Origin: Reclinomonas americana ATCC 50394
Taxonomy: Eukaryota
Assembly (NCBI GenBank): GCA_048213135.1
Contig: PS015027.1
Coordinates: forward strand, 43,782 to 107,781
DNA length: 64,000 nucleotides
Direction: 5' to 3'
Within the stretch, counting starts at the first letter, position 1. Each line of letters opens with the position of its first letter. Shown here in pieces: positions 1 to 63,900 of the stretch. The position numbers and the translations under genes were made by a program. Under the pieces are notes generated by a model that saw nothing but the letters and a program-made list of their open reading frames with translations, searched no databases and had not been told where the DNA came from.

Positions 1-1702
1 CCCGTGGGCGGTGCGGCAACAGACCCTCGAAAGCGCCGTGTTTCGGCTTCTTGAAGCTCCACAGCATGGCCAGCGCGTCGTCGGCGTCCTCACCGGCCTC
101 GATCTTGTCCATGGGCAGCACTTTCCTCCAGGAGAAAATCTGTATCAAGCGTACACATGACGACGGTGAGACCGGAGGCAAGAGGGGAAAAATGTAGCAC
201 GGCGTACCAACGGGTAGTAAATGTGAGCCATGATTTCGCACAGCTTGCGACCGTCTTCGTCGAGGTACGACTGGAGGAATCGCAAGGTCCTGCTGTTCAG
301 CGAACTGATGACGGCGCTGGTGAACGAGGCGGCGTCCGGTGCTGACAGGTACCGAATGCTGAAATTCCAGCCGTCCTGCAGCAGCTTGCGGTCCAGGGTG
401 CCCTCAAATATGGTGCCGTGGCCGCCCGAAGTGCTCACAGTTAGCACGCTTCCGACCTCGCTGGCGGAGAACTGGGGTGGGCGCGCAGGGAAACGAGAGG
501 TAAGCAACACTTTACGGCAAGCATAAACGCACACGCACGGGCACAAACCTTGGCACCGACACCGTACTTGGAGTACATGTGCGAGATGAACAGAAAGTTC
601 TTGTGGCTGTTGAACACTCCCTGGCGGGCAGTCGACGACGACGAGTAGGCGAGGCGGAAGAACGTCCTCATGCGATTACTGTCCATGCCCACTCCATTGT
701 CGGTGATGCTAATGATGCCTTGCGGCTCGTCCTCCGATTCCTGCGCACCGTGGTGAGTGCAGTAGGTCCCCCCATGTCGCCGAGACTCAGACACACACCT
801 CCGCCTCATCGACCTTCCACAACAGCTCGACCACCGGTTCCCCGGTCTCCGAGTCCCACACCATGTTCTCGCACGAGTTGTCGATGAACTCGCACGAGAC
901 AAGAACGGGATCGTACTGCAGCAGCCCAGAACCTGCAAGAGCCACACGCCATAAGCACGCAACGCACACACACACACATGCACACATGCACACGCACACA
1001 CACACACCCATGATCTTGGTGTCGGGCGGCTCGTAGATTGTGTAGTTGCGTGTCACCGAGGCCAGCGACCATTGCTCTCTCACCTCTGCAGTCGGGGAAA
1101 AGAAAATACCGAGCAATCAGTCGACACGCGCGCGCGCGCAACACACCAGCAAGCAGCACATTTCGGATAACGAACCCTCCGAGACATCGTCCGTAAACTG
1201 CACACAGCAATCCAGTCGCGTGATACGCTCATCGCTGCTGAGCATCTCGTGCGCTTTCTCCTCTGTCAGTGGCGTCTTCAAGTCGTCGACCAGCTGAGGA
1301 CGCGCGCGCGCACACACGCACAAAATCAATCGCAAGTTGTCAATGTGCGAGAGAGTGAGAGAGAGACACACACACGAAACATGCACAGCCATGTCAGAGG
1401 TAGAAATGTGGGCGAGTTCATCCTGGAAAGCATCGTGAACGAGTTGCACGAGTTCCTCTTGCGGTGCAATGGGCAAGTCCAAGTGCTTTCCATCCTGCAA
1501 TCACACACGCACACGAATGCACACACAAACACACACACGCAGAGAGAGAGAGAGAGAGACGCAAAAGCAGCGTGAGTGCACATGCATTCACGCACACACA
1601 CACACACAGAGAGACAAACACTTGCACACAATGCATGCACGCAACTGGACAGAGCACGTGGACTGGCGCCTTGGTGCGTGCAGGGGGTGCAGCTGCGGCC
1701 AT
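1..1702 (-). CDS. GHKL (HATPase_c-type) ATPase, SMCHD1/MORC-like; multi-exon, 3' part runs off the window
   Basis: Spliced exons give the Bergerat motifs EFIDNS, ITDNGVGM and SKYGVGAK, then FTSAVI and LCEIMAHIYYP (resembles the SMCHD1 LAHIYHY segment). Probable start MAAAAPPARTK at 1702. GT-AG introns at about 140-207, 472-548 and 1495-1645. Confidence 0.7.
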
Positions 1703-1877
1703 CCAAGCACCTCTCTCACACACACACGCACACACACACACTTTCTCGCACGTGGAGAACTCTTCAACGCACAATTGCCGGAAGTCCCGCACGACAAACA
1801 ACGTCGATTGCCTCGTAACAAACAGTTTTCTCTTTAGTTTTACTATGATGATTAGGGGAGGTGGTTCCTGGCGTTGC

Positions 1878-4800
1878 TTAGCCGTGGAGGCGAAGGGTTC
1901 CGGAATGATGCGACTGGCCGGCAGTCGTCGGATACGTCGGCTGCAGGAGGAATTCGACGCCATCTCGCTTGGCCAGCTCGCGCCACTTGCGTCGAGTGCG
2001 TGTCCGTCGTGAACAGCCGCACACGTCGGTGACGCGCTGGATGTAGCGCCATATGAGAGGGAGGCCGACAGTGCACACGCCGATAATGTACAGGACCAGG
2101 CCGGCCACGTCGCGGAAATGACCGCTGACTGCGGCGTCCGAGGTCTCCGACAGCGGGCCGGCGAGGAAGACTGCCGCCTATGTCGACCATAGCATGAGAG
2201 ACGTGTGGGGAGGCAACGAAAAAAATGCATGCAAACCATCAGTACGAGGATAACGAGCGTCAGGGCCTCGATGATCTGTCGTACGCGCACACACACACGT
2301 GAGCGTAATGATGAGCTGTGAAGCACAGGACTGTGACCGCACGCACATTGTCAATGGGCCGTCGGTAGGGCCGGACAAAAACGTGCAGTGCCAGGAACGC
2401 CATCTGTGCGCGCACACCAATGAGCAACAAATAAATAGCACAAGGAAGCAAAGTACATCCTGCGACGAACCGACATGATGAGCAGAGCAAAGTGCAATGT
2501 GCCGAGGTTGCCATTGTGCGACAGGATCAAGAAAGCGGCCACGTACAGCACTGCACACAACGGATGGTGAGCAGCGGCGGAGATCGCGAAGAAAAAATAA
2601 CACACACAGAAGCGCTCACCAGGTCGCGCCAACTGCACCGCCTGCCAGTAGTACATGCGGCTCTTGTAGCGATTGGACAAGCCGGAGAACAAGTGCCGCG
2701 CCTGCCCAATGTCCTTCCCATTGTCCGAGTCACCGTCGCCGTCGCCGAATGTCGTATCTGCGACGCTCGACAACTGTGGGTGGCCCCCGCGGACACTGCG
2801 AGACGACGACAGTCACACGTCAATAGATCGCAGAACAACACCAGCAAAAAAAAAAAAAAACAATGCGAAAAACATGCGAAACCTCTGCAGCGTGTGAGAG
2901 CTGGAGCCGGCGTGCGACGCAGAGAGCGACGCGTGCGACTGGTCCTCGTCGTTTGCCGCCGCACTTGCCTGCACATAATTCGCCGTGAGAGACAACATAC
3001 AAGGCACAAACACACACAGATAATCACAGCGCGCCGCACCGATAATCGATGCTCGTTGTTCGACGCCGGCGGCGACGCGGTCGTCTGCATCGGTTGCAAG
3101 GCAATCATACTGGCGTGAGCGCTCTTGGCAGTGCGCTGACGAGCCAGTCGTCGCCGATGCCACCACATGGCGATTCCGAGTGCTGGCGGCGTCAAGCACA
3201 ACACCGCAGACAAGAGGCCAATCAGAGGCTCGAGAGCCGCGTGCAAGCGACAAGTATCGGTGGCCGATCCCTGCAGTTAATTTCCGTCAGACCAAGTGCA
3301 CACGACCATCATGCGCTGCAGCACGTACCTCGATACAGCCAGTGCACTGCATGGACGGAATCAGAATGTTGAACGTGCCGAGATCGCCGACTTTGACGCA
3401 GTTCCAGAAGGAAAACGACTCGAACAGCAAGCTGCGTACATGTAAACAGGCGAGAATATGCGTGCTAAGACTTGTGTGCGAAAAAGACTCACCTCCAGAA
3501 CACGCCAGTCGCCAGCATGACTCTGCACACGATGCAATCGGAGTCAGAACGACATGGTGATAAATTTGACTGAACACGGCAGGAATGAACGCACGAGGAT
3601 CGAGCATAGCGCGACACGTTGGAGGTTTGCACAAACTTGCGTACGACCAACCACACACGAGCCTTCCAGATATTGGTGCGCTCGATTCGCATCCGCGCAC
3701 GGTTGTCGGGATGCATGTGGTTGCCTGTGCGGAGGGCGAGTAAGCAGCGGGACAGCGAGGACAACATCAGCAAGGCAAGCAGTGCGCAACTGTGTAGCGA
3801 CGGCGGACCAGAACCCGGATCCATACCAGACATCGGCAGCAGTGCCTCGCTCAGTGCTCCGGAATCCAGCGACTTGGAATGATGCGCTGCAGACAGGCGA
3901 TTCCGCTCCAGGCCACCAAACAATGACAATGGCCCGTGATGCAACGGCCCGCCAGGCAAGTAGTCACAAAGCTCCGGCCAGATGCAGGCCAGCAGCATCG
4001 AGATGGAGCGTTGCAGTGCAAAGAGAATCCACGTGCAGGCAAAGTAGAGCTGGCCACACCAACGAAACACAATCAGATGAGGTGGCGAGGATGCACTTAT
4101 TTCGCCACGTGATGCTCACCAGCGGATGCACAATCAGTGACATCATTTCGCCAAAGCCACTGGTCGGGAACGGACATTTTCCTATGTTTATCATGATGAG
4201 GTACTAAGACGCAGCTAGGTGGATTGTGCTCGTTCGTGCAAACCTTGAACCAGTTGGGTGATGGGTGCAAAGTCGAAAAACACCTGCAACAGGAACAGGA
4301 CAACGTGAGAAGAGGAGATCGAGGAATGGGAGACGCATGGAGAGTTGTCGTGAGCGTACCGTCGCCGCCTGAATCGTCGACTGCGGATAGAAGAGAAGCT
4401 GCAGTCCAAAGAGGAGCATTAGCAACCACAGAGACACACAATGAGAGCAGCGAATCGCCACGCAACTCCACTGGTCTGCGTGAAGAAGAAGAGCTGTGCG
4501 ACAAGTAAACAGAGTTGCGTGAGAACGCCAGCCGGTCTTACTGACATTGACACGGTATTGCTCTGCTTACCATGTAGACCTCGCTGCGGCCGCGTCCCTG
4601 TGACACCACGTGCAAGAAGCCGGCCAACATAAACAGCTCCAGAATCATCATGCCTGCGAGTGCCAACGATTAAGGCCAGCGAGCACAGAGAAGGAAGCAG
4701 AAGACAAACAAATGTCACAAACCAATGACTGACGTGTTGACACCCGGACATTCGAGGCAGACGTGTTGCCACTCGTGGTAGCCAGCTGCAAGCGTCATAT

Positions 4801-7800
4801 TCAGTTAGTAAACTCCTTCATATACAGTGAAGGTATCGCAATCAGCCGCCGCACCGGTGCAGAGACCACAGAGTGGTGACTGTGGGTCGCGATGCAGCTG
4901 AGAGCCACAGAATTGGCCCTGCGCATCAACAGAGACCGGTAGCACAACGTGAGCTCAACTGCCACGCACTGTGAGGGACGTCACATATTCTCACCTGCGC
5001 CACAGTGGATCCCGATGACAACGTCTGCGTGCCGACAATCAAACGGAGAGTCGAAACGTCGCTGAACGTGGTATCCGAGAAGCAGAAATTGTACGGGCAT
5101 CGAACGGTGGACACCACATTGTCGACAACGACAGGCCAATAGTCGTTGTTCACCTGTTGAAAAGAAGTGTATGTGAGTGAGGAGCGAGTGGGAGGAGCAC
5201 AATCACCGCACGCTGTCGCAACTGTGACGGCGCCATTGCCCGGGCAATCGAGATTGTCGTTTCGTGCGCATTGTTGGCAGGGATGGCCCGGAATCAAACC
5301 AAAAGTGCCAAGCGGGCACGACAGACATTGCTCGCCGTAATAGCCGAAACCAATCTGCACGAGCGATGAAGCAGGGAGGAGGTGAGAGTGCGCAGCAACA
5401 GCTTTTGCGCACACGCAGAGGCAACAAACCGGACAAGACTGCAGCATCACTGTCTGCGTCGTTGGCGATGACGTGAACTGTGTGGACGACGAACCCACTT
5501 GTACAACAACCGACTGTCCGAAACCACCCACTGGGACCACCGTGGCATTCACCACGCCATTCTGCATAGCCGATTAGCGAAAGGGGCGGAACTCTTCTCC
5601 TCTTCCCCGTGCCACTCACCTCCGTCGCGTAAAGTGTCGTGTTTGTGATGCAGCCGGAACCCGTACAGGTGACGATGACCGGGAATTGACCCAACGACGT
5701 GATGAGGTTACCGAACACGTCGCGAACACCAATGTCAAGCTGCACGCCAATGCCTGGTGGCGACGACGGTGCGGCGCGCGGTTCACCGGGATCAGAGCGC
5801 GCCGACAGACCGCCTGCAACATGCGCAGTGAGATGCCGGACAATCATCGCCACGAGTCATTTTTTCTTGCACAAAAACATTCACGCACCACCGAGCACTG
5901 AAGTCGACAAGACGTCTACCGCGTAGGGCGAGGAGGCAAAGTTGTCGCCGTACGAGTATGCAACGTTGTTGGACCACAACAAGCAAGACTCCCACGACAA
6001 TGCCGAGCGATTGACTCCCGGGGCTAAGCGCATAACAAGCATGTTAGTGCCCACGCGAGTGCGCGCAAGGAACGTGCTCCAACTTACAGACCGTAAATCT
6101 GGTTGTTGCAGAGCAAGTGGATACCAGGCTGATCGACCTCTACCGGCGACGGGATGGTGTACTCGCGACAAGATGACGCAACCAGAGCGGCGTCCGTGAG
6201 TGACGACGGACGAGACGCGCAAATCCACGCCGACATGGTGCTCCAACAACTTCCGAGCGACTGACCAATGTCGGTCGACGAGCCTACGCAGAGAAAGACG
6301 CACAAGAATAAGTCAAGTACGATGCTTCGCTCCCCAAGAGTCGCAGCCAGCTGCGTGCATACCACTGATGAACATTCCGCCGCCACCTATCGCAGCAAGG
6401 ATGAGTGCACGAGTAAGTGAGCGGGCAGCTGGAAGATCAATACACGCACCTTGCATGGCCGCTGCATTGCCACCCAGTGGCATTGTCTGGTTGGTGTACG
6501 CAATGTTGCCGATGACTTGCACGCCGTCGCCGAATCGAAGAGGATTGCAGTACACGGGAGGAATGTCGGCGGCACGTGGATGCGCATGTAGTGGCGGTGC
6601 TGAATCGCGACGTCGGACTGAACGAAGCGGATTCTGATTGCTGGCCAACGCCAGACTGTCCACGTACAAGCCTGGTGCACAAAAGAGAGAACGATATGAG
6701 CCGACAAAAATAATGCAGAAGTCATCATCGCGTGCACTAGGGTACAGACCGCCACCCAATGTGGCCACATTCTGCTGCAATGTGGTGCTACTCAAATCCA
6801 GTACGCCGTTTTCGATACCGAGGAAGATTGCTCCACCTGCCGAAGAGTGTGAGTGAGTCGCGATAGCATTAGCGTCCGTGAAGAACCACGCACCGCGCGC
6901 AATAGCAGTGTTGTTGGCGATCTGTTGTTCTCCACAGGTGAGCACAATGACTACAGTTGAAAATGAAAAGCGACAACACTGCATCGCCGACAAACCAGCG
7001 TGTTGTCAATGAAGAGCGACGACTCGGCGGCCACGTAGATTGCTCCTGCGCCAAGCAAAGTGGGTGAGAAATATAGCCTCAACAATCCATGAGGTAACGA
7101 CGACAAGACCTGCGTCTGCAGACGCTACGCTGTACATGATGGAAGAGTACGACACGTACACGTTGAGGCCGAAGAGACCGCTCATGTACACTGCGAGTGC
7201 GTGTGAGGAAAATGAACACAGCTACAAATCCTGCAATAGTACGCACAAGCGCCTCCCTGTGACATGCCACCACAGAGTAAGCACACTATCACATAATCTA
7301 TCCCAACAATAGCAACAGATTCTTTTCGCAACTGTCACTGCTTGACCACCAGCGAGATACGACTCGACAATGTGCAGTTGTCCCGTGTCAGTCACGTACA
7401 CCAAGCCACCTGCAACGTGCAGCACACAGACACAAAAATATCAGCAGGCTAGCACATCAAATACGCGAGAAGAAGGGAAGAAAAGCAACCATTGGCTGCG
7501 CTGGAGCTGTACAAGTCGCACTGCTCAATGGTCACGGTGGCAGACTCGGCACAGCGTACAGAGCCACCATCCTGGGTGGCAACGTTGTTGTAGAGGCGCG
7601 TGCTGATGATGGCCACCTTGGCGTAGTCGCCAATAACCACACCGCCACCATGCGTCGCTGCGAGACATAGGTGGTGCGTGCCGTCAGTCGCAAATCACAA
7701 CAAACTAACATAGTGCGTCCATCACGCACCATTGTTGGCGGTGATCACCGAGTTGCTGAGGATGCTGATCGTGGCACCCTGCAGAGCACACACGGCTCCA

Positions 7801-10800
7801 CCGTACCACCTGGCATAGTTGGACACCAACTGGACGCCTGATAGGGTCACTGTGCACTGCCCCGATGCGTATAGCGCTGTGTGAAGGCTCAGAGTGAGCG
7901 ATCGACAGGGGTCAATACGAGCAAAGCAATAAGAGGAGGCAACCTCCGCCATCAGCAAGTACTGCAGCGTTCATCTGCAACAAACTATCTGCGACACCGA
8001 CGGCCACCGCAGCACTCTGCACCCAGAAACAGTGTCAACAATTACCATTACCATCGAGCACAAGATCGTGGAGTAAACCGAATAGGAATGCTCACCACGT
8101 AGAGACCACCGCCGATCGCAGCTTGATTCCTCGTAAATACCGACGACTGGATCCCCATACTTATTCCGGTGCAATACACGCCTCCACCACCAGCGGCTGC
8201 CAAGTTGCCCACCATTTCACAGTTTGAAATGGACGTCGAGCCTTCATCAATAAACACGCCACCACCCTGTGACAGCCGACGAGTGTGAGGGTGTGTCGCT
8301 GCATAAAGGCAGTGCGAGAGAGTCAGTGCACCTGAATGGCCGAATTTCCACTCAATAAACTGCTCGCGACAGTCGTCAAGTCACCGGTGGACGACAGACA
8401 ACCACCGAAAAGAATGCCAGTGTTGTTGGAACACTGCGAGTACGTGAATGTCACAGCACCATCGACATGCACTGCGCCACCTTGTTCGGCAGTGTTGTTG
8501 GCAAAGAATCCGCTATTGACCTGCATTTTTCGGGAAGTGGACACGCAAGAGCACATCAGCCATGCCGCTACTCATAGGAATGTTGACGGACAAACAGGAG
8601 CCGACAACACAAACCAGCAGCTGAGCGTTGTCTGACGCAAAGAAGACACCTCCCTGGTAGTCCGCACGGTTGCCTAAGGCCACTGAAAACGAATCGCTGG
8701 CCGACAGTACATCAATGAGAGCGCCGCCTGCAGAAACAAGGCAACGGTAAGCACAGACGCGTGAGAGCAGACACTGGTAGTGCGACGGAAATTCTCGCCT
8801 CCTTGGCCCACGTGAATAATGTTTGCCGTATTGGTGACCAACGACGCCGTCACTGTGTTTTGTAACCTGCAAGCAGCCAAGCGGGCAAATATCATGTTAA
8901 TGAGAGGGGCACGGGCGCAGACAATGTCGGCCGTCAGCCGCAAACGTACCACTGGTTACCCGACATAAACAAAGAGGCCGAATTCAGCGAGGAAAACGTG
9001 CTGTGTCCCATGGTGAGGAACACGCCACCGCCGCCGACTCTCGTGAAAGGTGGGGTGAGGTACACCGAAATCACTTCCGTCTAGCGAAGCACCGACAGAA
9101 AAAAGAGTAAGTGAAAGAGAAACCAATGGCGCCAGACACACAAACACGCAGACACGCGCTGACAGACCCTGACAAAGTTGCCGGAAAAAACATTATTCCA
9201 AAAAGATGTCGTGACAACCGGCGCAGCCGTCGTGGGAATGACCACATATGCACCTGCGCCAGTGTGAGTGGAGAAACGCAAGACGAGTAGCAGTGAGCAC
9301 ATGTTCTCCAGCGAACCAGCACCACCGCTATGCAGCAGCGCGAGAGCACAGTTGGGCACGGACGAAAGGATCAGCGAGTTCCCCGTGAACACATTGTTCA
9401 CGGCGTCGAAGACCACAGTTGTTGCCGAGTCGGACACACCAACCTATGCGGTGGTCAGAGTGAGCGTCGCACTAACACATCGTGCGTGCAGCGCACGAAC
9501 CAAGTAAAACGATCCGCCAGCATACAGCTGCGTGACTGTGGCCCCGGGGTAACCGGACACAGTCTGCACATACTTGTGTCAGCAGCACTGCGCACACAAG
9601 AAAAGTAACAGAAAATCAGAGTGATACAGAACATTGTTGGTAAAGTGCGAGTTCCAAAGCGTGAATTTCGAGTTTGTCACTGCCGATTGTGCCTGCAGTC
9701 GCAAAGCGAGTGAGAACTGCGGCGGATGCACACACGAAGCCTTGCGCACCAGTCACTCACCTTATTCAGGATGTAGATGGCACTACCGCCAAAGAAGCTC
9801 GAGACACTTGGATTCGTGTCGCCTGCCAGCACTCGGTTGTTGGAAAATACACTGCGACCACAGAATGAATTTTGGTGTGCGAGACATGGTGCTGACTTTG
9901 CACAGTGCACCACCACACACCAATTGGTGACGTTGCCGATGAGACCGCCCAGTTGAACCGAGCTGGCGTGAATGTAGATGACTCCGCCACCGGCGTAGTC
10001 AGCGGGTCCAGCACTGATGGAGAGTCAGTCTGAGTATACACACCACATGCACCACATACATCCGACAAACCCAATAGACTTGGACACGTCGGCCTGGTTG
10101 CCCGTGAAAGTTGAGTCGACAAAGGTGACATTGAAGCTGACAGTGGTGCCGTAGATGTTGGTCAACAGAAAACCACCACCATTGCGATTCGACGCCGCTT
10201 GTCCACTGGCCACTTGTGTCGGCACCGTCGCTGCGCAGTTATTCGTGGTAACATTCTGCACCACTAGCTGCGCATTCGTCGTGTACCTGGAGAATCAACG
10301 AACACTGTCATCAGCGTGCTTGTTGCACAACGCAGATGAGGGACTGCGCGTACCCATTGAGGTTGTAGTAGACACTACCGCCGCCGACAATGTTGTCGCC
10401 GTAGAACGAACTCGAAAACGTGGAGCCGACAGTGTCCGTGGTGAACGTCGTGTTTTTCAGCGAGATGAGAGAACTGATGGTGGCCAGTTGGTTATTCGCC
10501 GAATTCGCGTAGAGATAGAGACTGCCGCCGCCACTCATTCGCCACGGGCTGCACAGGGGAACTCGTGAGCGATGCGGTCGCGACACAGCCCTCAGCACGA
10601 AAGGCACTCATGATGAACCTGTAGTTTCCGTTGAGCATGACCAAGTTGGTGTCGAATGCACTGTTGACCACATTGATCGAGATGGTGTGCGTCGCGTCTG
10701 GATACATCGATGTAAACGTGTACACGAAACTGCGTGAGATCAAATAATGTGAGTGCGCAAGACCCTGGCATGAAGCACATCGACAATGCAAAGCACGAAA

Positions 10801-13800
10801 CATTGTACCGCCCTCGCAATTGGAAACACTGGGCGTGAAACCATCACCAGGCACTGTGGTCGAGTTGGCCACGGTGCCGGATGCGTTCACGATGTTGTTC
10901 GAAAATGTACAGTTGGTGATGCTGACGGGAGCGGAAACAGATTGCGAGGTGGATGTGAACAGGTACAAGCCAGAGCCACCATTGAAGTTGCCGTTGTTGT
11001 TGCCATACTGTGTGTGCATCATGCAGCGCCGTGTGAGAGCAAGCGAGACATGTGATAGAGTCCGGAGCACAATACCAACCGTGGACGTCATGGTGTTGTT
11101 GGTGACGATCGCAGCATTCAGAATAAACGTGCATCCGCTGACTTGCACCGGCATAGATACTGTGCCTTCGCCGTACTGCAATGACAACACCAAATAGTAA
11201 GGCATCTGGTTGGAGACAAGTGCATACAACAACGTCACCAGAGCGAGGAAAATCACGGTGCCACCTGCGCGGTTACTTAGGTGAGCAAGTGCGACACTGA
11301 AACACAACAAAATCAAGTCCACACCGTTGTTGTTCGACGGATAATTCGTTGTCAGAGACTGAATGGCCGTATTGTTTTGCTGCACGAACACACAACCACA
11401 TCATCAGCACGGAACACACGCGAACGCGCGCTCGGGCGAGTCACAAGACGCACCACAAGCACGACGTTTCCGGCAAAGTATCCATCCGTGACATTGAGAC
11501 CCATGTTGGTGACTCCTTGGCCTGCACGTCAAAAGAGAGACAGCGTCACCAACCAACTGCGACACTTTTCATAACGTCAATCAGCACGTACCAATCGTGT
11601 AGAACATGAAACCGCCACCTACATCACACAGCACTAGTTGTGAGGGCCACAATAACATGAATGAAGCATGCAGCAAGCATCTTCGTCTCACCGTTTGCGT
11701 TGTTGTTGCCAGCTGCAACATCGAATCAGCAGTCAGTCAGGGCACACATTGGCAACACGGAAAGAAGTGAACTTCATACGCAGCCGGTGTACACATTGTT
11801 GGCGACCACAACAGAGTCGACAAGCTGCACCGATGACAAGGTAATCTGGCCTTGCGAGTTGCCATTCTGCGCGATATTGCCTGCACAGATTCCCAGTGGT
11901 GAACAAGTGGACATCGAACCGTATCGAACTGTCAAGATCAAGCAACATACCGAAGAAAACACCGGAGCCGCCAATCGTGTTCAACCCAGCGGGAATTCCA
12001 CCGCTGCCCTGGACGTAACCGTTCGAGACCACGTTCGTAGCCTGCACTTGACACTTGAAGAAAACGGAGTTGGAGATGGTCACTGAGCTTTGCGTGTTGC
12101 CGATGAACTGCGACGATACGCGAGCGTAGAGGAAGCCACCACCAGCCAGATTGGCGGCTTGCGACGTCAGGTACTCGGCAGTCATCAGAAGGTAATTGGC
12201 CTGCACATTGTCCAGTGCGATCGTGGTCTGTGCACTGCCGCCCGATGCCAGGGTGTAGGTGCAGATGGAGCCGCCACCTAATTGCGCCATAGAATATATG
12301 AGGCAAGATTCTTTCTCCAAGCGCAGCAGCGGCAGCGGATAACAGCGCACGTACCAACAAAATTGCCGCCCGGGTTGGTCTGATACTGGGGCGCCGACGA
12401 GTAGCTAGCGGTAACCGAGTCGCCCGAGAACGAAGTGTTGGTGATCACAAGGCTCGAGCCAGCAGTGCCGAAGCTCGCCTGTTGCGCAAAGACCAGAATC
12501 GAACCGCCGCCAGAGTTGTTGCCAAAGTCCTGCGCAACACCGTAACTCGCGTCGACAGAGTTCTGCAGGAACTGCGAACTCGCGATACTGCGAACCACCA
12601 CCACTTAATCAGCACTGGCCACCAACACACGCATGTGAATGCAAACAAATGAACCGCAGTTGTGTCCACGTGCTCCCGTTGGAGGCCGAAATCATCGCCA
12701 GTGCGCCGCCTCCGTTCTGAGCATCCATAAAAAGCAAAGTGATGAGAGATTGCACATCCACATACACACACATGCACAAAGTGCACGCAACAATGTTGCC
12801 ACTCGTTTGCGTCGCCGTGTTGTATCTCGCCTGCACCGAATTGGAGGAAAATACACAGTTTGTGACCACGGCCGTGGTGTTGATGCTTTGGCTAATGGCA
12901 TTGGCCTGCAGGTTGAAGAGCTGCGCGAACAAGTACACGGCTGCGATCCGGGTACACAATCAGAACCGCCGACCAATAACAACAACAGTGAGCTGGCGTG
13001 CGTGAGAGACGCACCTGCACCGCCATTGTCGTTCGCACTTGCATTCACAGTGGCCTCGTTATTATTGGCAGTGACCTGCACAAGACGTGTCAGTCGAGGG
13101 TAGGCAATGCAGGAGCCGCACGTGCAGCGCACCGAGTTGCTCACGAAGTTGGATTGAGCAAAGTTGGCCACCAGTTTGTTCCCGTTGAGAATGCCGTCAT
13201 TCAACACAAAGAGTCCTGCGGCCCGCACGTGAGAGGAAAAAGACGGTGTGTCACTCGGGTTCAGCAACCGCTGCTGCACTCACCAGCACCACCATTGTTG
13301 TTGCTCAGATTGGGAGAGTCGGCCTGGCCCGCAATCACCGTATTATTGCTCGTGAATGTGTTGTTACTGTGCACGGTACGCAATATGTGTCAACAATTGC
13401 TGGCTCGCAGCTACATAAAGGGAGACAACGTACTAGAATTGGCTGTTCAACACATCGAGATTGATGGTCGACGACTGGCCGCGAGAGAACACGTAACACG
13501 CGCCACCTGCCACCACACAATGCGCACGCAGTCAGCGGTCGGTTGCACGGTGCTAGGCACAGAGTGGAAGACGGCAAACCATTGGCGTTGAGAGCATTGT
13601 TTGCCAAGGCGTTGTCGGTGTGTGCCACGTTGTTGGAGAAGGTGCAGTTGGACACGAGCACATTCAGCTCACTGGTGCCGTTGAGAGCCAGCGACACAAC
13701 GTACACTCCACCTGCGAATCGATTCAGTGATCCACCTCCTTCCACGCCCCACCTCGCCTCGCCACAACGCAACTACCGCCATTCATGTTTCCACCGGCGT

Positions 13801-14859
13801 TGTTGTTCCGGCCGGGTGCGTTGCCGACAGTCGAGTTGTTGACAATTAGCATGTTGTTGTCGAATACGCAGTTCAAGAACGTGACATTCAGCTGCGACGA
13901 CACGAGGCCGTTCATCTGAGAGAGCGCGATGTGTTGGTCAAACTGCGCACGGAGAGAGAGAGTGCACACACCACGCAACATTGATCATGACACCGGTGCC
14001 ACCCTGTGCGACGACACATCTGTCAGGCACAAGATAACGCGAGGCTCGCTCTCTCTACACGCAACGTTCTGATTCCACTGATATGTCAGAGTCTGGCTCG
14101 CATTCACGACCGAGTTGCGAAATGACGAATTTTTGAACATGCCACTGACTGCAGTTGTGTAGCCGTAGGCATTGCCGTACAGGCCACCGCCTGCCAACAC
14201 CACACAGATGAGAATCAATTGCTCGGATACGTCAACAGAGTCTTCCGCAAGTGCTACACACCGCCATCAAGATTGCCTGCGAGCAAAAGAGAGTGTGAGC
14301 GTCGAACACGAGCGAGAAGGGAGGGAGCGCAGCGCAGAGGTCGACTCACCGCCGATATTCGTGGAGCCAGGGGTGGTGCCTGGAACGTACACCAAATCAC
14401 TGTCGAACGACGAGTTGGTGACGTTGATTGAGAGCAGTGCGGGCGTCAGGATGTTGCTGCTTTGAGACACCATGTACACGGAGGCGCCGCCGTCGAGATT
14501 TACGCGCGCTACTGCGTTGGCCAAGTGAACCGAGTTGCCGGCGAATTCACATGCGTCAATGCTGACAGTCACGGCAGCCGGATCAGAGGTGCTCGCCACA
14601 ACCGCCGTCGAATTCACTGCGCTTTGAGTGAGCACCAGCAGCATGATGACAACGCAACGACTACTAGGCGACCCAAACCGTTGTTGGCCACCAGGTAAAT
14701 CGCACCGCCAACAGCGGTCATACCAAAGTCGCTGGAGACCCAGCTGCCGGTGGCGTCTACCATACTGTTGGTGACCGAGGTGTTGACGGCTGTGAACGAC
14801 ACTGAGGTGATGGCTGTCGGCAATGGCGAAGCCTGCCAATCAAAATCGCTGTCAGTAAG

Positions 14860-14947
<88 letters not shown>

Positions 14948-15140
14948 GACGCGTACGACGACGACGACGACACGTACCGTCCGACCGACGACCGACGACG
15001 ACGACGACGACGACCGACCGACCGACGAACGAACGAACCGACCGTACCGACCCGAACCGAACGAACGACGGACGGNNNNNNNNNNNNNNNNNNNNCTCCT
15101 ACTCCCGTCGTGGTCGGCCGTTCGGACGAGTACGTACAGA

Positions 15141-15184
<44 letters not shown>

Positions 15185-17489: not shown

Positions 17490-17739
17490 CGTGATGGATG
17501 GAGGCAAGAGGATGTGCGTGAGAAAGTGTGTGTGTGAGAGAGAGAGAAAGTGTGAGGGTCAGAGTCTTGTTATGGCCATGCGTGCGCTCTCAGGGGGGGT
17601 CGCTGCGTGATTGACTGCTTGCTGTGATGTACGGAAATTGCAGTTTCCCGAACCCGCCCCCTCTCCCCGCCCCCTTCTCCTTCTGCCCGCTGCCAAGCAC
17701 ATGCCAACGAGGAATGAGACACACGTTCACTTGGATGAG

Positions 17740-18860: not shown

Positions 18861-18914
18861 TGCAAACGAAGAGTGAGAGGACACAGAGAAGGACGACGCG
18901 CGCTGATTGTACGT

Positions 18915-47422: not shown

Positions 47423-47526
47423 TGTTGTGGGGTGTGTTTGTTACTGTAAATCGTCAATGATCATTTACACAAGAGTGTGTGGGAGAGGAGGGAAGAAAAG
47501 CGAAACAAGAGTAGGAAAAAGCACTT

Positions 47527-52127
<4,601 letters not shown>

Positions 52128-52228: not shown

Positions 52229-52783
52229 ATGCCGCGCTTGACTGGCTTCGTGAAGAACGTCGTTGCTCGTGGTGGCCACCACAACCCGGTGAGTCAGTTG
52301 CTTGCGTCTCTGTGTGTCCGTGGGCGCGCCATGTCTCGCGTGCGTTGCTCTCTCTGTGTCTGTGCGAGTGTCTGTTCATGACTGGTGTGCATGTGTGCGT
52401 GTGTGTGCATGCGTTGTTGTGAGGAGGGGAGCGCTGTGACGTGAAAGATGTGCGATGTCCATGCCACTCACTCACTCGTGCGCTCTCTCTTGTGCAGCCT
52501 CTGTACTTTGCCGACAAGGCGCCGACCAAGGCCGGTGTGCTGGCTGGTGTCGCGGCGTACGCGCTGACGGTTAGTGTGTGTGCATGCATGGATGCATTTG
52601 GGGTGTGCATCTTGCACTGACATTCCGTCCGCATCTTCTTCTTCTGTTACAGGGCGTGTCGCTGCCGATCCTCATTGTCTGTTGCGTTGACACCTTCTCT
52701 CACACACGCTCTCTGTGCCTCTCATGCGCGCGCTCATTGTTCCTTTGCACACAGTGCACCAACTCAACAAGAGCAAGGGCTAA
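52229..52783 (+). CDS. COX7C: Cytochrome c oxidase subunit VIIc-like, 62 aa, 4 exons (52229-52288, 52498-52569, 52653-52680, 52755-52783)
   Basis: Spliced product MPRLTGFVKNVVARGGHHNPPLYFADKAPTKAGVLAGVAAYALTGVSLPILIVLHQLNKSKG. Presequence, a single TM helix and a G..xP..xV.HQL.K C-terminus as in COX7C. Confidence 0.72.
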
Positions 52784-52988: not shown

Positions 52989-55397
52989 CTATCGACCGCT
53001 GTATGAGAGTCGTCGATTGGCGCCACCTNNNNNNNNNNNNNNNNNNNNNNNNNNNNNNNNNNNNNNNNNNNNNNNNNNNNNNNNNNNNNNNNNNNNNNNN
53101 NNNNNNNNNNNNNNNNNNNNNNNNNNNNNNNGGCAGCGGCAGCGGTAGCAGTGGCGTGGTGGTGGTGGCCACGGACGACGAGGAGGAAGACGACGACGAT
53201 CAGCGGTATCGCAGAAAGTCGGCCGACCACGACTACGCCGATGCGGCGTATGGCGACAGTGACCGACATGCACCTGCTGCTGCGCGACTGCCACCACACC
53301 CCATGCCCGGACCGCAAAAGGGCCGCCAGCCACCACAACCGCAAGCAGTGCCTGTACGCTCCACGGGACACCTGCCACCGCAGCCGCCAGTCATGCAGCG
53401 CTCCATCACCCTGCCCACTGCGCCATCACTAGCCGCCGCCGCGGTCGGAGCCGGTGGCACGACAGCTGCCGGGCGCGCACAACGCACATCACCGATGAAC
53501 CCGCTCAGCACGCCCGCCACCATGCACGCCCAGTACCGCCTGCCACGCTCCGAAAACAGCGCCAATGCCGCCGCAGCTGCCGCCGCCAATGCCGCACGAG
53601 CGGCCGCCACCGCCTCCACNNNNNNNNNNNNNNNNNNNNNNNNNNNNNNNNNNNNNNNNNNNNNNNNNNNNNNNNNNNNNNNNNNNNNNNNNNNNNNNNN
53701 NNNNNNNNNNNNNNNNNNNNNNNNNNNNNNNNNNNNNNNNNNNNNNNNNNNNNNNNNNNNNNNNNNNNNNNNNNNNNNNNNNNNNNNNNNNNNNNNNNNN
53801 NNNNNNNNNNNNNNNNNNNNNNNNNNNNNNNNNNNNNNNNNNNNNNNNNNNNNNNNNNNNNNNNNNNNNNNNNNNNNNNNNNNNNNNNNNNNNNNNNNNN
53901 NNNNNNNNNNNNNNNNNNNNNNNNNNNNNNNNNNNNNNNNNNNNNNNNNNNNNNNNNNNNNNNNNNNNNNNNNNNNNNNNNNNNNNNNNNNNNNNNNNNN
54001 NNNNNNNNNNNNNNNNNNNNNNNNNNNNNNNNNNNNNNNNNNNNNNNNNNNNNNNNNNNNNNNNNNNNNNNNNNNNNNNNNNNNNNNNNNNNNNNNNNNN
54101 NNNNNNNNNNNNNNNNNNNNNNNNNNNNNNNNNNNNNNNNNNNNNNNNNNNNNNNNNNNNNNNNNNNNNNNNNNNNNNNNNNNNNNNNNNNNNNNNNNNN
54201 NNNNNNNNNNNNNNNNNNNNNNNNNNNNNNNNNNNNNNNNNNNNNNNNNNNNNNNNNNNNNNNNNNNNNNNNNNNNNNNNNNNNNNNNNNNNNNNNNNNN
54301 NNNNNNNNNNNNNNNNNNNNNNNNNNNNNNNNNNNNNNNNNNNNNNNNNNNNNNNNNNNNNNNNNNNNNNNNGTTGCTTCTGGAGCTGTTGGACGCTGCT
54401 GCTGCGGCGGCGGCAGTAGTCGTGGTCGTGCTGGTCGATGTCGTCGTTGATGCCGCGCTGGAGGCGGCCTTGCCACCACCAGCCGCCGACGGGCCGTCAA
54501 AGTACTTTTTGTAGACGACAAAGTTGTTGGCCTGCGGCGTGTAGTCGCGCAGTCCGTAGTGCTTGGCGAGGAAACCGAGCAGCTTGTGCGACGGTCGATC
54601 GTAGGCCAATTGCGACGGCACCACCTTTTCCTCCTGCACTCACAACAGCGATGAGCGACGATGATAATGATGGCCGACCAGCAAGCAGACGCACCGCCAA
54701 CATGAACTCAAACAGCTCCTTGCCGAATCCCTGTCGCTGGCGAGTCGGATGCACGAAAATGTCCAGCACACACAACGGCGACATCTCCTTGTAGGCACCA
54801 GTCTCCAGCTGCGCCACCCCCCGCGGTCAGCACCAGCGACGCCCCAACCCACAGAGAAAGGATCGCGTGCGCAACTCGATGGAACAGCTTCTTGTGGCCG
54901 ACCTTGAGCAAGCCGACGGCGAGACCATCCTCACAGCCGAGATACAGGTGCTGGTCGGGATTGTTAATCAGGCGACTGGTGGTGGTGATCACTTGACTCA
55001 GTCCTTGTGCCTGCAAATTGCCAAGAGTGAGACAAAATGAAGGAGGTGTGTGTAGAGAGGGCGCACGCGGACCTCTTGCGAGGCCAGGCCCATGCGATCA
55101 ATGATCCGACTGAGCGAGTCGAACGCATCGGATCGTCGCGCTCTCAGTTGCGCAAGTCGATCACCGTCCCATCGCGAAAGCCGCTCCGTAAGCAGACGTT
55201 TGCAGTGAGCATCCAGCTGCACAAGAGAGAGTGACACGAGAGAGAGTCAGATCAAGAGGAGATGTCCCTTTCGCCGAATAACACGCATTCGCAGAGGCGC
55301 GATGAGAGGCACACAGAGAATGCGACACAGGCATAGAGAGAGAGAGCACACAAAGAGCATGCGGGGAGGCAGAGGCAACGCGCGCACACACCTCCAT
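52989..55397 (-). CDS. ATAT1: Alpha-tubulin N-acetyltransferase (MEC-17); low-complexity tail partly in gaps, piece 53132-53619 apparently inverted
   Basis: [71 protein letters not shown] and PQANNFVV. The 3' end is tentative. Confidence 0.93.
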
Positions 55398-57912: not shown

Positions 57913-60900
57913 CTATGCTTTGCTGGAGGAGTACCGATGTCGCTGCTGGTACTGGCTGTGAAGATTGCGGAAGATATCCCGGCCGAGCGGCGACAGCATG
58001 AGGTGCAATTGTTGCAACCTGCGAGAGAGCAGGTGAGGTGCAAGTACGTGGGTGGAGAGTGAGGAGTGCATGATGACGCACCCGCTCTCGTCTGACACAT
58101 CCATGAGTGCATACGTGCCGAGTGTCATGCGCCGCTTCGCCTCGCCGCCCATGCCATGCTCCTCCAACGTGGTGACATACTTGCCAATCAATTGTGGCAC
58201 GTACAGTCGCAACCAGTTGTTGGTGGCTCGTTGCCGTCCACTCGCTGCGAATAATAATCAGAAACCACACTTATAGAGAGAGAGAGAGAGAGAGAGAATC
58301 AGGATGATCGCCACTTGCCATCGCCACTGGCCTGTGCGGCGGCTGCAGAACGAGACCGTGAATGGTCGTCAACTTGGGCACTGCTGAACGTGCTCGACAC
58401 ATTCTCCTCCGACGCCAGCTCGTTCATCACCCGCACCACCGCGTCCACGCATTGCAAGTGTACCGCTTCCTGTGTGCGCAAAACATATGAGCCATGGAGC
58501 ACACACACAAACACTCTCTCACATCAGCCGCCGCCGCCGCCTCAACTGTGCATTCGAACAGTGGACGACCAGCAGCACTTCCACTCATAGGGAAAACGCC
58601 GACAATCAACACTGCGTGCGAGGTCATGAGCGACGAGAAACATCGTGACACCAGGCGATGTTTGTGCATGCGCAACTCTGCAAGAGTTCCACCAGCAGAC
58701 CAATGTTGCTGCTGACAGCGTAGAGACGGTAACGGATCAGCGACATGAGCACTCGTGAGGCCACCTGCAACACTTGCGGGTGGCACAGCAAGCGCACAAC
58801 GCCAGCCTTCCGGCCAGTCTTGCCCAGCGACGGAGGCGCCACAACTGGAGCACCTGTGCCACACGTGCCAGTGACTGCCACCATCTGTGACTGCAGCACG
58901 GCTGCCACCTCGGCTGCTGTCACTTGGAATGCCTGTCATGGCAAGGTATAACAGATTTGAGACTGCTACATACGTAACAAGAGCAGAGAACGCCCCGTAC
59001 CTCTACCCGGCTGATCATGGCACACGCGCAGTCGGCGGCCGTCTCGGCGAACGTGGGGAAGTGCGGTGCGCCGGCCAGCAACGCTGTCAGATCGACCACA
59101 TGCGACAGAATCGCCGCCTGCCGATGTCGCAGAATACGCATCGACAGCGATGCTGTTGGAAAACGTGGAGGTCAGTGAGGGAGGCACGTAAGCAAGACTG
59201 CACTCGACGACGTGTTGCGCAACAGTTTGCCGTCTGCAACACAGTGACCAGGAGATGCATGCCCAAGAAGAGTGCCGACTGCTCGCGCTGGCTGCGTGCA
59301 CTGTCGGCACCGCGTTGCAGCAACGCAAGCGCCGACGAGTACAGCTGAACGAGAGTCTCGGGTCGCGCCGCTCGCACAATCACTCCGATGCACTCGTCGA
59401 GTTGTGCGCAGTTGGGCCACACGGACTTGAGCCACAGCACAAAGGCGGCCACGCGACTGTGCACACTGAGTGGAACGGCGGGCGTCACTTGCGGCAGTGT
59501 ATCACACAGCGAGAACAGCAGGCGCAGCTCCGCTGCCACCGCCTCCTGCGAGTCATGCGATAATGATGAGCACACGCACGGCCCTTCTTATGTACATACA
59601 AACGAAAGCGACAGAACTGCAGCTCCGTGCGCCTGAGCATGCCGTGTCAGTGTGCCCACAGTCGAGTGCAGCACACGACCGAGATGGCCAACAATGGGGA
59701 ACGCATCCGCTCGTGACAACTGTGGCGAGGACAGCGCGCACCGCAGCAACGAGTCCAGCACAGAGGACAGGCCGTGCGGTGGCCCAACATCCTCCTTGCT
59801 CTTCTTCTTCTTCTTCTTTTTCTTGTCCTTCTCCTCGTCAACTTCCACGTTGTCGCCCTGTGGGAGCAGACTGACAGTGGCCTCCTGCAACTCGCCAAAC
59901 TTCTTGCGCAGCACGTTGTCCCTGCTCGAAAGAGACACAAATGAACAATGACATTCAAAACGTCCACATCATGCGCCTCCCAACAACACTTACGTGGTGA
60001 ACAGTAGTGGACGGACTCTCACACTCTCTGTAAAGGCGAGCACAATGTATCTCGCCAGACGCAGGTCAAAAGACGTTGGCGACCTGTGTATGCACGTAAG
60101 CAGACGCAGAAACTCACAGAGAGGAATGTCGACAACAACCCACCGGCTTTCCAGCGCTTTGCAAACGGGTTTTACAAAGGTCCTGACGCACTGCTTGGCG
60201 TCCGCCTTGTCCACAAGTGCCTGCTTGTCGTCTCGTCGTCTGTCACCCACTAGGCTGACAAACTCGTGACTGCGCGACGCCAAGAACACGGTAAGTGCGT
60301 GTGTGGCATGGACGCGCATGGGGACCAGGAGAACCTCACAGCTCGCACGAAGAACTCCTCTTCTTGCTTCTGGCTTGCCTCATCGTCAGCAAACAGCGTG
60401 TCGCCCAGTTTCAGCAAATTGACGCGTGTCTGTAGCAGCAATCCGACCGCGCCTCGGTAGGCGACGGCCAGTGCACCGAGCGCGCCGGATACCTGCCATG
60501 AAGCAAGGCTGGTTGGTGAGAGAGAGAAAGGGACCCTCCGAAGCTGAAGAGAAGGCACTCACCTCGGGCAAGTGCGGCACAATCGACGCAAGGCAGATCA
60601 TGCGCTCCACCAGCAGTCTCCGCAGCGCTTCTTGCTCCTCCTTGTCCTCGTCGATTAGATACGCAGCTGCGTGCACATGCAACGACACGGTTGGTGTGCT
60701 GTCTCCGACTGTCATCAGATTCGCACGCAACTGTCTCCAAGTGCCGAGGGCAGCAGACCGGGTTCAACGCCAACGGCCGTCGGCAGCATCGAAACAAATC
60801 GCGCCAAGCCAACAATCCGCTGAACAAAACTGTGTTGCGTCGACGATGCTGCGTGCAGTGCCTGGCGACAAAACTTGAAAACGGGCGACTTTTTCGCCGA

Positions 60901-63900
60901 GGCCTTGCCTTTCAAGAGACTTCCGTCGAGCTCCTCGTGCTGCAGTCACATACAGTGAGTCGCGTCTCGCGTGGCACGCTCCGAGGGGAAAACACAATAC
61001 GCACCGCCGCGAGTGTATCTTCCAGGATTGACTCTGTCGCGTGCACAAGTCGTCGCAAGAGGCAGGCTGGTCGCAAGTTGTCAGCACAGTGCGCACAAGT
61101 GCACACACACACATATTTTTTTAAACAGGGAGTCACCTCGGAAAGCCGGCACGTCCAGCAGAACCGAGTCGCGCACGAGGTGTTGCGCCACCGCCACACA
61201 TTGCAGGCTCGCGTTCGATCCCGCGGCTTCGAATGCGTGAATCAGAAAGTCGGCCAAGTGGCCGCATGCTTCCTCTTTCAAGTACCAGCTGCGCATGGCG
61301 GATGAGCGCCCAATGCTTCAGTACACACAGAACAAGAAAGCGATATACACACCACAGCGTGGGTGAAAAGTGCGAGATGCAATGCCACAAGGCCGTACAA
61401 AAGACCGCCTCGTCAGTCACAACATCGACGCACTCGTCCCACGGTTCACTAGGAGTGGCGGGATGCAGTGACCAGTGAGTGCACGAGCATGGACTTGCGC
61501 ACAACAAGACAACAGTAGGGATTCGCTCACCTGGCAAGAATGTCGCTCAAAGTTGTCTGCGCCACCACAAGAAGCATCAGCAAGAGAAAGGACGCACAAT
61601 ACAGATGTATGGAGAGAGACGCAACTCGCTGCTTGACATACTTCCACACAATGCTGAGCAGCTTATTGATCTCCTTGGTGGACGCCGACGACGAGAAACC
61701 AATCGACTCCCACTGAGCCATGGAATCTGGAGCGCGGCAAAGCGAGTCAGTGAACGGACCAAGCTGCCTCAGGAAACACCTCATACAACCCTTACCGTCA
61801 AACTGTGCCGAAAAAGTCGCGTGTTCCGCATTGCAGTGCAGCATGTGAATACGCTGGAGGCATATTCGGCACTGCACAAAACAATCACACACGCAAGAGA
61901 GGTGACACGTGAGTATCTCACAGAAGGCGACATACGCGTGACGGAAGACAATGATTGCCGTCGCACCAGTGCAAGCTGGGCACGGTAGTCATCGCGGACG
62001 GCGGCAATCTTACGCAGGCGACGCAAGTACGCGACCAGGCTTTCGCCTGGCACGACTCTGTCGACCAACTCCGACACTCTGTCGGGCGGGAAGCCGGCGT
62101 GATTGCGAAGTGTGAGACGCGTCTCCTGACACACTGCGGCACAATCGATGCCAGCATACATGGCCTCCAGCAATGCAGCGTACACGTATCCGGCGCTGAC
62201 CAGACAAAATAAACACGCCACGTAAGAAATGGACAAGAGGTGAAGGATCGTCGAGATCATGATCACACAGACCACGACTCTTCGACACTCGATGCCACCT
62301 GGTCCAGCGCAATCAGTGCGGGTCTCAGGAACTGTGCTCCCATCACCAGTTAGCACAACGCACAGTGGCAAGAGCCCCCACAGTAGCACCAGCACGCACC
62401 TCCATGAGGAACATGTTGCAGCACTCGGCGGCCGCATCGACATTCGACTCGTCGACACGAACAGCGAAAAAGAGCGACTGCGCCAGTGCCACTGCGCCAT
62501 TGACAACAATAGCCCGCGACTGACTGGTCGCATCTGCTCAACTCAGCTCGTTAGGGTCGACCACCACGTGACGACCGATCAGGAGATAAACAAACCACGA
62601 CCGAACGGATCCACAAGGAACGGCAGCACCGTGTCCTGCAGCAGCTGCACGAGACGCCAGCTGAATGGAATCACTTGACCCGACGGCAGTGCATCAACGG
62701 CCGACAACAATCTGCGTGTATCACGATCAGCAAATATCATACAAAAACATGAAAGCGTGCATCGCATCGACGCACGTCTGTTGCACTTGCTTGTGGCGCA
62801 GCAGCACCGACAGACCGGCAGGTCGCTTCCCTCGACCAACAAAGGCCGCCAGATTCGCCAGCATGGTCTCACACAGCACATCGAGCTGGCGCAGCTTGTT
62901 GTACACTTGCAGACATGTCACCATAAAGTCGGCAGCACCCTGCAGCACGTGCTCCAGCGCAAAGATGCGCTCCAGCAGCGCATCCATGAACGGCTGCACC
63001 AGTCGGTGACTGAGATTGAGCAACCAGCGCGCCACGCGGAAAACAGCGTCGTGTTGCTGCGCAGAAGCATCGCATCACATAATGTCAGCTGCAGTGAAAA
63101 ACAGGAGGCGAGGGAGAGGAGAGTGGCGCAACAATGGGCGAGGCAACGCAGGTGGACAAACAGAGTGCCAGTCGGTTCCGCGCCAGCTCGTGCTTGGCGT
63201 CGGTCCGTGTGTCACGGTACACGTCGAAACGGTGCATCACCTCGAGCAGCGCGGCAAGAGCGCCAGCCCCACTCGCGACCTTGTCCTCATCTGCAGCACA
63301 GCAGTGAGTTGCAGCACAGCGATGAGGGTGAGAGCAGTGGCAACCAGGCGTACCATGGATGCGAATCATGTCGATCAGTGGCAGAGAGAGTTCGTGGAAG
63401 AACGCAAACATTTCGTAGTGCTGATCCCCCGAAGTGCTCACGGCGCCCAGCGGTCGCTTCCGACTACCGCTTGCAGCAGCCGGCGGTGCCTCTGCAGCTG
63501 AATCAGCAGAGGCCGACGCACTGCCACCGAGACTCCGGCCTGGTGTCAGGGCTTGTCGCTGAACGGCCTCACAGTACCAGGTCAACAGCGCCGGCATCAC
63601 CGCCAGGGCGGCGGCTGTATGTGGGAGGAAACTTAGCAGCGGCACAAGAACAGAAATGTGACGTCACCCGCACCTTGTCGCTGGTCGCCGGCAGCACACA
63701 TGGCAAACAACCGCACAAACAGCTGACTCTGGAAGCTGGCAAGCGACTGACCCTTGTACTGCACCACAGTACCCGTTTTGGCGCCCTTGCCCTTTTTCCT
63801 GCACAACAGGAATCAGCCTCTGGAACCACTCGGGAAATGCACGCACGCCGCACGCAACTTGGGTGGCTCGCCGACGGTTTCCGCAGCCGCTGCGGCATCG

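Follow-up and report, generated by a model that had tools for sequence, protein, structure and literature searches.

Introns in a 64,000-nucleotide (nt) stretch of the draft genome of Reclinomonas americana ATCC 50394 (assembly GCA_048213135.1, contig PS015027.1, positions 43,782 to 107,781 of the forward strand; hereafter the window, in whose coordinates all positions are given) begin at 5' splice sites of two classes, which differ in where the donor signal lies relative to the cut. In class 1, which comprises about four in five introns, the donor is G/GTNNGT (the slash marks the exon-intron boundary), with a near-obligatory G at -1, a G at +5 and a T at +6. In class 2, about one intron in six, the donor is H/GTTGCGT (H being A, C or T), with the rarer forms GTTACGT, GTTTCGT and GTTCTGT. 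Class 2 is the G.TNNGT signal of class 1 moved one base into the intron, with the first G of the intron replacing the last G of the exon. The either/or relation between a G at -1 and the GTTGCG donor is real, and the one-base displacement of the entire signal is well supported; we are highly confident that the GTTGCG donors constitute a genuine class. A first-pass annotation, made from the sequence alone, had proposed 22 introns of this kind and aligned them with G/GTGCGT moved by one base, an alignment with which our results agree: the G at +5 and T at +6 of ordinary donors are found at +6 and +7, and exon positions -1 to -3 resemble ordinary positions -2 to -4.

Evidence for the two classes comes from gene prediction in which the donor sequence carried no weight. 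We used a Viterbi gene finder with a 3-periodic Markov coding model and self-trained acceptor and intron-length models; a version that relied on codon usage alone proved too noisy to use. In the donor-blind run every GT received a flat score and the better-scoring strand was kept, which yielded 125 introns. GTTGCG is the commonest donor hexamer in this set, present at 15 of the 125 introns compared to 76 of 8,243 GT sites (0.9%; binomial P = 1e-12), while the product of the single-position frequencies predicts 0.6. Division of the donor-blind introns by the -1 base displaces the signal by one position (Fisher P = 3e-9), as follows.

G at -1: 70 introns, of which 40 begin GTNNGT and 1 begins GTTNNGT; 53 have G at +5 and 7 have G at +6.
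Another base at -1: 55 introns, of which 3 begin GTNNGT and 13 begin GTTNNGT; 9 have G at +5 and 28 have G at +6.

Since GTNNGT also follows a base other than G at 676 of 6,600 background GT sites, donors in the canonical register that lack a G at -1 are not enriched. The trained run, in which the donor model was split on the -1 base and GTTGCG was not named, likewise gave 125 introns: 91 of class 1, 23 with GTTGCG (0.9 predicted from the single-position frequencies) and 11 with other donors not preceded by G, among them six with GTTACGT, GTTTCGT or GTTCTGT. All counts from the gene finder are estimates, the trained set is biased toward the pattern it learned, and the donor-blind and trained models differ at many junctions in the window.

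Spliced protein alignments reveal the same division. We aligned 41 homologues of a Deg/HtrA protease (38 of them on the N-terminal piece of the gene) and 13 GH125 homologues, obtained from a representative search (a GH125 search by shared words was empty), with a spliced protein-to-DNA aligner whose only splicing information is GT/GC...AG and a flat penalty per intron. The homology set consists of the 24 introns found in at least half of the alignments; ATAT1 was excluded because it was chosen for its claimed site. Of its introns, 17 are preceded by a G; 14 of these carry G at +5, and in no case is T at +3 combined with G at +6. The 7 introns with another base at -1 include 2 with G at +5 and 5 with T at +3 and G at +6, of which four begin GTTGCG and the fifth GTTTCGT (Fisher P = 0.001 for position of the signal against the -1 base). 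Homology or collinearity fixes five GTTGCG junctions, with donors at 44138, 43058 and 45943 in Deg, 33001 in GH125 and 54875 in ATAT1.

GTTGCG thus begins 12% of introns in the donor-blind set, 17% (4 of 24) in the homology set and 18% in the trained set, so that the share in the window is nearer 12-18% than the tenth first estimated. Two patterns that the first-pass annotation had named as fatal to the class, GTTGCG donors at the rate given by a single weight matrix and independence of the -1 base, are rejected: the matrix predicts fewer than one donor compared to the 15 to 23 seen, and the dependence on -1 is evident both ab initio and in the homology set.

The raw count of GTTGCG in the window is mildly high (76, compared to 62.9 +/- 8.0 in dinucleotide shuffles, 3 of 100 of which reached 76) and by itself proves little. 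Predicted genes contain the motif 40 times in sense and 24 times in antisense orientation; as 23 of the sense copies are donors, donors account for the excess. The first-pass annotation viewed the class as compensation for the loss of G at -1. This stands in the sense that a G at -1 is not needed, but the stronger notion that G is avoided lacks support, as G is found at -1 in 1 of 23 GTTGCG donors and in 8 of 53 non-donor copies.

Direct inspection of the sequence found GTTGCG at all 22 of the positions and strands proposed in the first-pass annotation, and the -1 bases given there are correct: 21 are not G, and the exception is 25571. As introns, 17 of the 22 are supported, all 17 within frame-consistent gene models; one, at 26076, is plausible, those at 1645 and 4466 are unsupported, and those at 52681 and 63858 are ambiguous. 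The donor-blind run recovered 11 of the 22 exactly and identified four additional GTTGCG donors (5222, 13773, 58676 and 59223), while the trained run recovered 17 and added 7332 and 25347, which brings the GTTGCG donors beyond the original 22 to six in total. The sites, with the run or the homologues that recovered them, are listed here.

20331-20907, + strand: GTTGCG intron of 577 nt in a KNL1/Spc7-like gene, T at -1; trained run only, absent from the donor-blind run.
22105-22166, + strand: GTTGCG intron of 62 nt, C at -1; both runs.
25347-25419, + strand: new GTTGCG intron of 73 nt, C at -1; trained run only.
25571-25637, + strand: GTTGCG intron, the sole one with G at -1; both runs.
26076-26140, + strand: plausible GTTGCG donor, A at -1, 65 nt; skipped by the gene finder; if forced, it is in phase 0 with a CAG acceptor, and both sides score positive for coding.
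45943-46019, + strand: GTTGCG intron in the N-terminal piece of Deg, A at -1, AAG acceptor; 35 of 38 homologues and the donor-blind run.
52681-52754, + strand: claimed GTTGCG donor in a putative COX7C-like tail, T at -1; adjoining exons too short, with coding scores of about 0.
1640-1645, - strand: claimed GTTGCG donor, unsupported; motif present, upstream coding score negative, no convincing acceptor or upstream exon.
4461-4466, - strand: claimed GTTGCG donor, unsupported; motif present, upstream coding score about 0, long-intron solutions only.
5154-5222, - strand: new GTTGCG intron of 69 nt in the beta-helix repeat gene, A at -1; both runs.
7116-7332, - strand: new GTTGCG intron of 217 nt, A at -1; trained run only.
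12717-12791, - strand: GTTGCG intron, T at -1; trained run.
13712-13773, - strand: new GTTGCG intron of 62 nt, A at -1; both runs.
13916-13979, - strand: GTTGCG intron, T at -1; both runs.
14004-14065, - strand: GTTGCG intron, C at -1; both runs.
16239-16315, - strand: GTTGCG intron, A at -1; both runs.
16967-17084, - strand: GTTGCG intron, C at -1; both runs.
18640-18696, - strand: GTTGCG intron, C at -1; both runs.
32932-33001, - strand: GTTGCG intron in GH125, A at -1; 9 of 13 homologues and the trained run; the donor-blind run picked 33007, in the same frame.
33258-33332, - strand: A/GTTTCGT variant of the shifted class in GH125; 10 of 13 homologues, missed by the gene finder.
42992-43058, - strand: GTTGCG intron in Deg, T at -1; 38 of 41 homologues.
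43323-43393, - strand: probable but contested GTTGCG donor in Deg, T at -1, CAG acceptor; trained run, 0 of 41 homologue alignments.
44084-44138, - strand: GTTGCG intron in Deg, T at -1; 40 of 41 homologues and the donor-blind run.
54809-54875, - strand: GTTGCG intron in ATAT1, A at -1; donor-blind run; exons gapless on PDB entry 4yrh_A, passing from residue 100 to residue 101.
58612-58676, - strand: new GTTGCG intron, A at -1; both runs.
59153-59223, - strand: new GTTGCG intron, T at -1; both runs.
60667-60731, - strand: GTTGCG intron, A at -1; both runs.
61557-61625, - strand: GTTGCG intron, A at -1; trained run; the donor-blind run picked 61620.
63853-63858, - strand: claimed GTTGCG donor, ambiguous, A at -1; several acceptor and phase solutions score alike.

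The contested Deg donor at 43393 gives a 71-nt intron with a normal CAG acceptor and adds a 10-residue insertion to the protein; the alternative, 43388 to 43288, preserves protein length, requires a GAG acceptor and is chosen in 22 of 41 Deg alignments. The AAG acceptor at 46019 (+ strand), which closes the 45943 intron, is found in 35 of 38 homologues. In AGM1, which encodes phosphoacetylglucosamine mutase, the spliced alignments are too divergent to place most junctions, and 30711 is the sole donor that is unanimous (12 of 12). The AGM1 intron at 30360-30443 (+ strand) has three rival donors within 15 nt, with homologue votes of 5, 2 and 2 of 12. One of these, GTAGCGTG at 30369, received 2 of the 12 votes compared to 5 of 12 for 30360, and G/GTAGCGTG has the form GT-N-GCGT, in which the extra base is A and G is at -1. 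Identification of the gene at 52681 as COX7C found no support in Pfam or PDB, and no usable PDB match was obtained with the putative COX7C exon or with two GH125 exons, the short upstream one and the one that follows it. Among nine ordinary donors that the first-pass annotation listed for comparison, all have G at -1; the positions of seven are exact, and those given as 22935 and 56745 are one base off.

Apart from the donor, the introns of the two classes are alike. Median intron length is 70 nt for class 1 and 69 nt for class 2 (P = 0.91), the acceptor is CAG in 81 of 91 and 22 of 23 introns, respectively, and a CTNAY branch motif lies in the last 22 nt of 36 of 91 and 9 of 23. The same lengths, acceptors and branch motifs imply that both classes are U2-type GT-AG introns. 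U12-type introns have the donor consensus RTATCCTT and a TCCTTAAC-like branch site near the acceptor. They resemble class 2 as a minority class with a rigid, long donor in which a G at -1 is not required. However, the class-2 donor is GTTGCGT rather than RTATCCTT, its 3' regions carry CTSAC...CAG like other introns, and its branch motif, acceptor and lengths are those of the main class; we therefore rejected a U12-type identity. We also rejected a family of introner-like elements, since an all-against-all blastn comparison of 125 intron bodies yielded one class-2 pair, of low complexity.

The displacement extends to both sides of the cut. The dinucleotides at the two N positions of class 2 (GC, AC, TC and CT) are a subset of those in class 1. 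In the exon, the class-2 -1 position is like class-1 -2 (P = 0.69) and class-2 -2 is like class-1 -3 (P = 0.63), with P = 0.09 for the third shifted comparison, while the unshifted comparisons differ (-2 versus -2, P = 0.02; -3 versus -3, P = 0.003); with 23 class-2 sites, all taken from the trained run, these tests are no more than suggestive. In either class, the base that precedes the key G is seldom itself a G (7 of 91 in class 1, 1 of 23 in class 2). As the class-2 exon flank matches that of class 1 moved by one base, a shifted register is favoured over a bulge. At class-1 position -2, where G is strongly depleted (7 of 91), A is not favoured either (28 A, 32 T, 24 C), unlike in the usual AG/GT consensus.

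The reading that we favour, and to which we give about an even chance, is that class 2 pairs in a shifted register with a lineage-specific U1 small nuclear RNA (snRNA). The reader of the 5' splice site, most likely the U1 5' end, would bind both classes in one register on G.TNNGT, and the cut would then be set at whichever GT the signal contains. The "shifted register" established for a few human donors would serve here as a routine second class, and the U1 5' end would have to differ from that of human, for example by a G at position 5. We infer both the partner RNA and the register from the donor patterns; the two-class structure, the one-base displacement of the flanks and the identity of the 3' ends are observed in the introns themselves. 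An Rfam search of the window for U1, U6, U11 and U12 snRNAs found none, with no match at all at the gathering score and only weak look-alikes of microRNAs, small nucleolar RNAs and small Cajal body RNAs at E <= 5.

The standard U1 5' end is ACUUACCU. Taking the human-type U1 5' end from Tan et al. 2016, we computed nearest-neighbour pairing energies for the donors and for 600 decoy GT sites. Class 1 pairs well with this end (mean -6.6 kcal/mol; area under the curve (AUC) 0.89 versus decoys); G/GUGCGU reaches -5.7 kcal/mol and the human shifted donor GUUAAGU -5.8. Hypothetical U1 ends with G at position 5 improve pairing for both classes, and a G at this position matches the preference for C or T at +4 of class 1. 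With such ends the optimum is shifted (+1G:C9, +6G:C4) in 12-19 of the 23 class-2 donors and canonical in class 1. A scan of 4096 U1 5' ends turned up a few that individually suit both classes (AUC 0.85 and 0.90).

Beyond the small sample behind the exon-flank tests, a number of results weigh against shifted pairing. First, with the human-type end, class 2 in its best register has a mean of -1.7 kcal/mol compared to -2.7 for decoys (AUC 0.34), and the explicit shifted and bulged registers give +1.0 and +1.4 kcal/mol. Thus, human-type U1 pairs worse with class 2 than with random GT sites in any register, the analogy with human GUUAAGU drawn in the first-pass annotation fails for this U1 end, and a diverged or variant U1 is required. 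Second, H/GUGCGU, at -2.4 kcal/mol, should outdo H/GTTGCGT, yet it is rare; duplex stability by itself leaves the donor rule unexplained. Third, class 2 is tighter than a plain shift of class 1: C is found at +5 in 28 of 33 class-2 donors versus 42 of 92 with C at +4 in class 1 (P = 8e-5), and GTTGAG occurs once, while GTGAGT is common in class 1. The rarity of H/GTNNGT and the insistence of class 2 on GC both lie outside any simple pairing model. Fourth, the GH125 gene has a canonical-register donor without G at -1, C/GTGAGT at 31970 (intron 31917-31970, - strand), found with 13 of 13 homologues, which on this alignment evidence is a proven exception to the -1G rule. Finally, the gene-finder catalogue recovers about half of the 24 homology introns, 8 exactly in the donor-blind run and 12 in the trained run (9 and 14 if the donor alone is considered).

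A more specific proposal, which we regard as doubtful, is that recognition has been rebuilt, either by a changed U1 5' end (G at position 5 and a base other than C at position 8) or by a second U1-type snRNA complementary to GUUGCGU. A dedicated reader in the strict sense, in which class 1 is left to standard U1 and class 2 is recognised by a further U1-like snRNA, or by an RNA-binding protein, with a surface complementary to GUUGCGU, is unlikely in our estimate. It would fit the near invariance of class 2 over seven bases, compared to the degeneracy of class 1 at +3 and +4. It also fits the computed pairing, in which the perfect complement of GUUGCGU (256 ends, with positions 5, 6, 8 and 9 varied) suits class 2 and not class 1 (AUC 0.996 and 0.60) and the human-type end does the opposite; this would be the signature expected of a separate reader, if one exists. 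Variant U1 genes are described in other lineages, as reported in the accessible part of PMC8457000. However, single U1 ends that serve both classes exist, which makes two readers unnecessary, and the equivalence of the exon flanks after a one-base shift is expected of one reader, not of two.

Alternatively, class 2 might represent GTGCGT, the best of the class-1 donors, enlarged by a U after GU that is looped out when the donor pairs with U1 (and U6); register and cut site would otherwise be canonical. Such a bulge predicts the same downstream positions as a shift (+6G and +7T) and could leave the usual U6 pairing in place, and +2/+3 bulge registers are documented for human donors in the accessible text of Tan et al. 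2016 (PMC4856993). However, -1 would still face C9 of U1, favouring a G that is seen in 1 of 23 donors, and the exon flanks fit the shifted and not the unshifted frame. Moreover, the extra base is commonly T only (GTAGCG and GTCGCC occur once each in the donor-blind set), and the bulge comes out slightly less stable than the shift in the calculation (+1.4 versus +1.0 kcal/mol). We consider a bulged U distinctly improbable. Of the first-pass proposal of routine recognition by shifted or bulged U1, the displaced signal is supported, but the simple bulge fails on the G that it predicts at -1.

That there is no special class, the GTTGCG junctions being mis-set, drawn from one degenerate matrix in TG-rich introns or carried by related inserted introns, is largely refuted and very improbable: the mild excess of GTTGCG over shuffles (76 versus 63), the four of 22 claimed sites without support and the imperfect gene finder speak for it, but five junctions are fixed by homology or collinearity, the donor-blind enrichment (P = 1e-12) and the 15-23 donors seen exceed the one matrix's expectation of less than 1, and the intron bodies are unrelated.

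The window is an intron-dense eukaryotic draft scaffold of about 55% G+C, with 3,922 N across 15 gaps. Its introns are short, with a median of about 70 nt, a terminal CAG and a branch motif resembling CTSAC. Pfam scanning of stop-free open reading frames (ORFs) recognised a HATPase_c_3 protein, the KNL1/Spc7-like gene, Pex16, GH125, a TTL-family ligase and EMG1; the window also contains AGM1, Deg/HtrA and ATAT1. The AGM1 homologues are taxonomically mixed and at most 49% identical, and the protein collections searched hold no close relative (top AGM1 identity 49%). A metagenome scan with a Pex16 exon found no relative, and one with an AGM1 exon found 22 loci, whose full-length matches, at 45% identity or less, are too distant for intron comparison.

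Several other features of the window were noted. Asn-, Ser- and Thr-rich repeat exons extend over about 14 kb at 4800-19013 (- strand) and resemble a giant beta-helix adhesin; nine GTTGCG donors sit within this region, and two of its exons tested against Pfam had no match. At 36963-40730 (+ strand) a single uninterrupted exon, among neighbouring genes with an intron every 100-200 nt, encodes a DUF285 repeat protein of 1,187 residues (Pfam E 4.8e-281); the gene could be a recent acquisition or a retrogene. A long ORF of Lys/Asp/Gly/Asn-rich repeats (KGNDKGDD...) at 33810-34337 (+ strand) has the top codon-model score per length and is probably low-complexity sequence, not a gene. At 42300-46290 and 47500-51720, single genes are broken into parts of opposite orientation, separated by N gaps: the N-terminal exons of Deg are on the + strand (45.8-46.3 kb) and the remainder on the - strand (44.5-42.3 kb), and TTL-family exons are on the -, + and - strands. 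These arrangements are probably scaffolding errors of the draft assembly.

Donors read in a shifted register have been described in human. In the available portions of PMC4856993 and PMC9311317, such donors start with GUU, carry the consensus one base deeper and are cut at the GU, and the first G of the intron is proposed to pair in place of the last G of the exon. Class 2 is alike in its GUU start, its displaced consensus and the cut still at GU. However, the human donors, as those portions present them, are rare, have AA at the variable positions and pair with U1, whereas class-2 donors make up 12-18% of introns, have GC and show no computed pairing with human-type U1; a further difference is that class 2 goes together with a main class in which G at -1 is almost obligatory. 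The bulge and asymmetric-loop registers of Tan et al. 2016, in the part of that paper open to view, are similar in having an extra nucleotide between GU and the equivalent of +5G and a signal longer than nine bases, but they hold -1 opposite C9 of U1, while here a G at -1 is not needed (1 of 23). For animals and plants, the accessible sections of Parker et al. 2025 (PMC11732430) and Kenny et al. 2025 (PMC11842720) report that 5' splice sites fall into two major classes whose exon-side and intron-side strengths are complementary. These resemble the present classes in that a weak exon side pairs with a strong intron side, but from those sections they share one register, whereas here the intron-side signal is displaced and canonical donors without -1G are almost absent.

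Literature searches, which left paywalled papers and supplements outside reach, found no report of a lineage with a displaced donor as a routine class or with GTTGCG donors; shifted U1 base-pairing appeared only in human work and in one tunicate paper, which touches on the idea briefly. How approximate binding by U1 is converted to an exact cut is still argued, and the debate rests on a few atypical human donors and engineered minigenes. A genome with a displaced signal at one intron in six is a natural test case for how the spliceosome chooses the cut site, and a strict either/or rule (-1G, or GTT and a shift), if true, would supply thousands of such cases. A second U1-type reader, if true, would be a third donor-recognition system beside U1 and U11. 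Gene finders that rely on a single donor matrix will mis-annotate this organism, and class 2 yields a checkable prediction about the 5' end of its U1.

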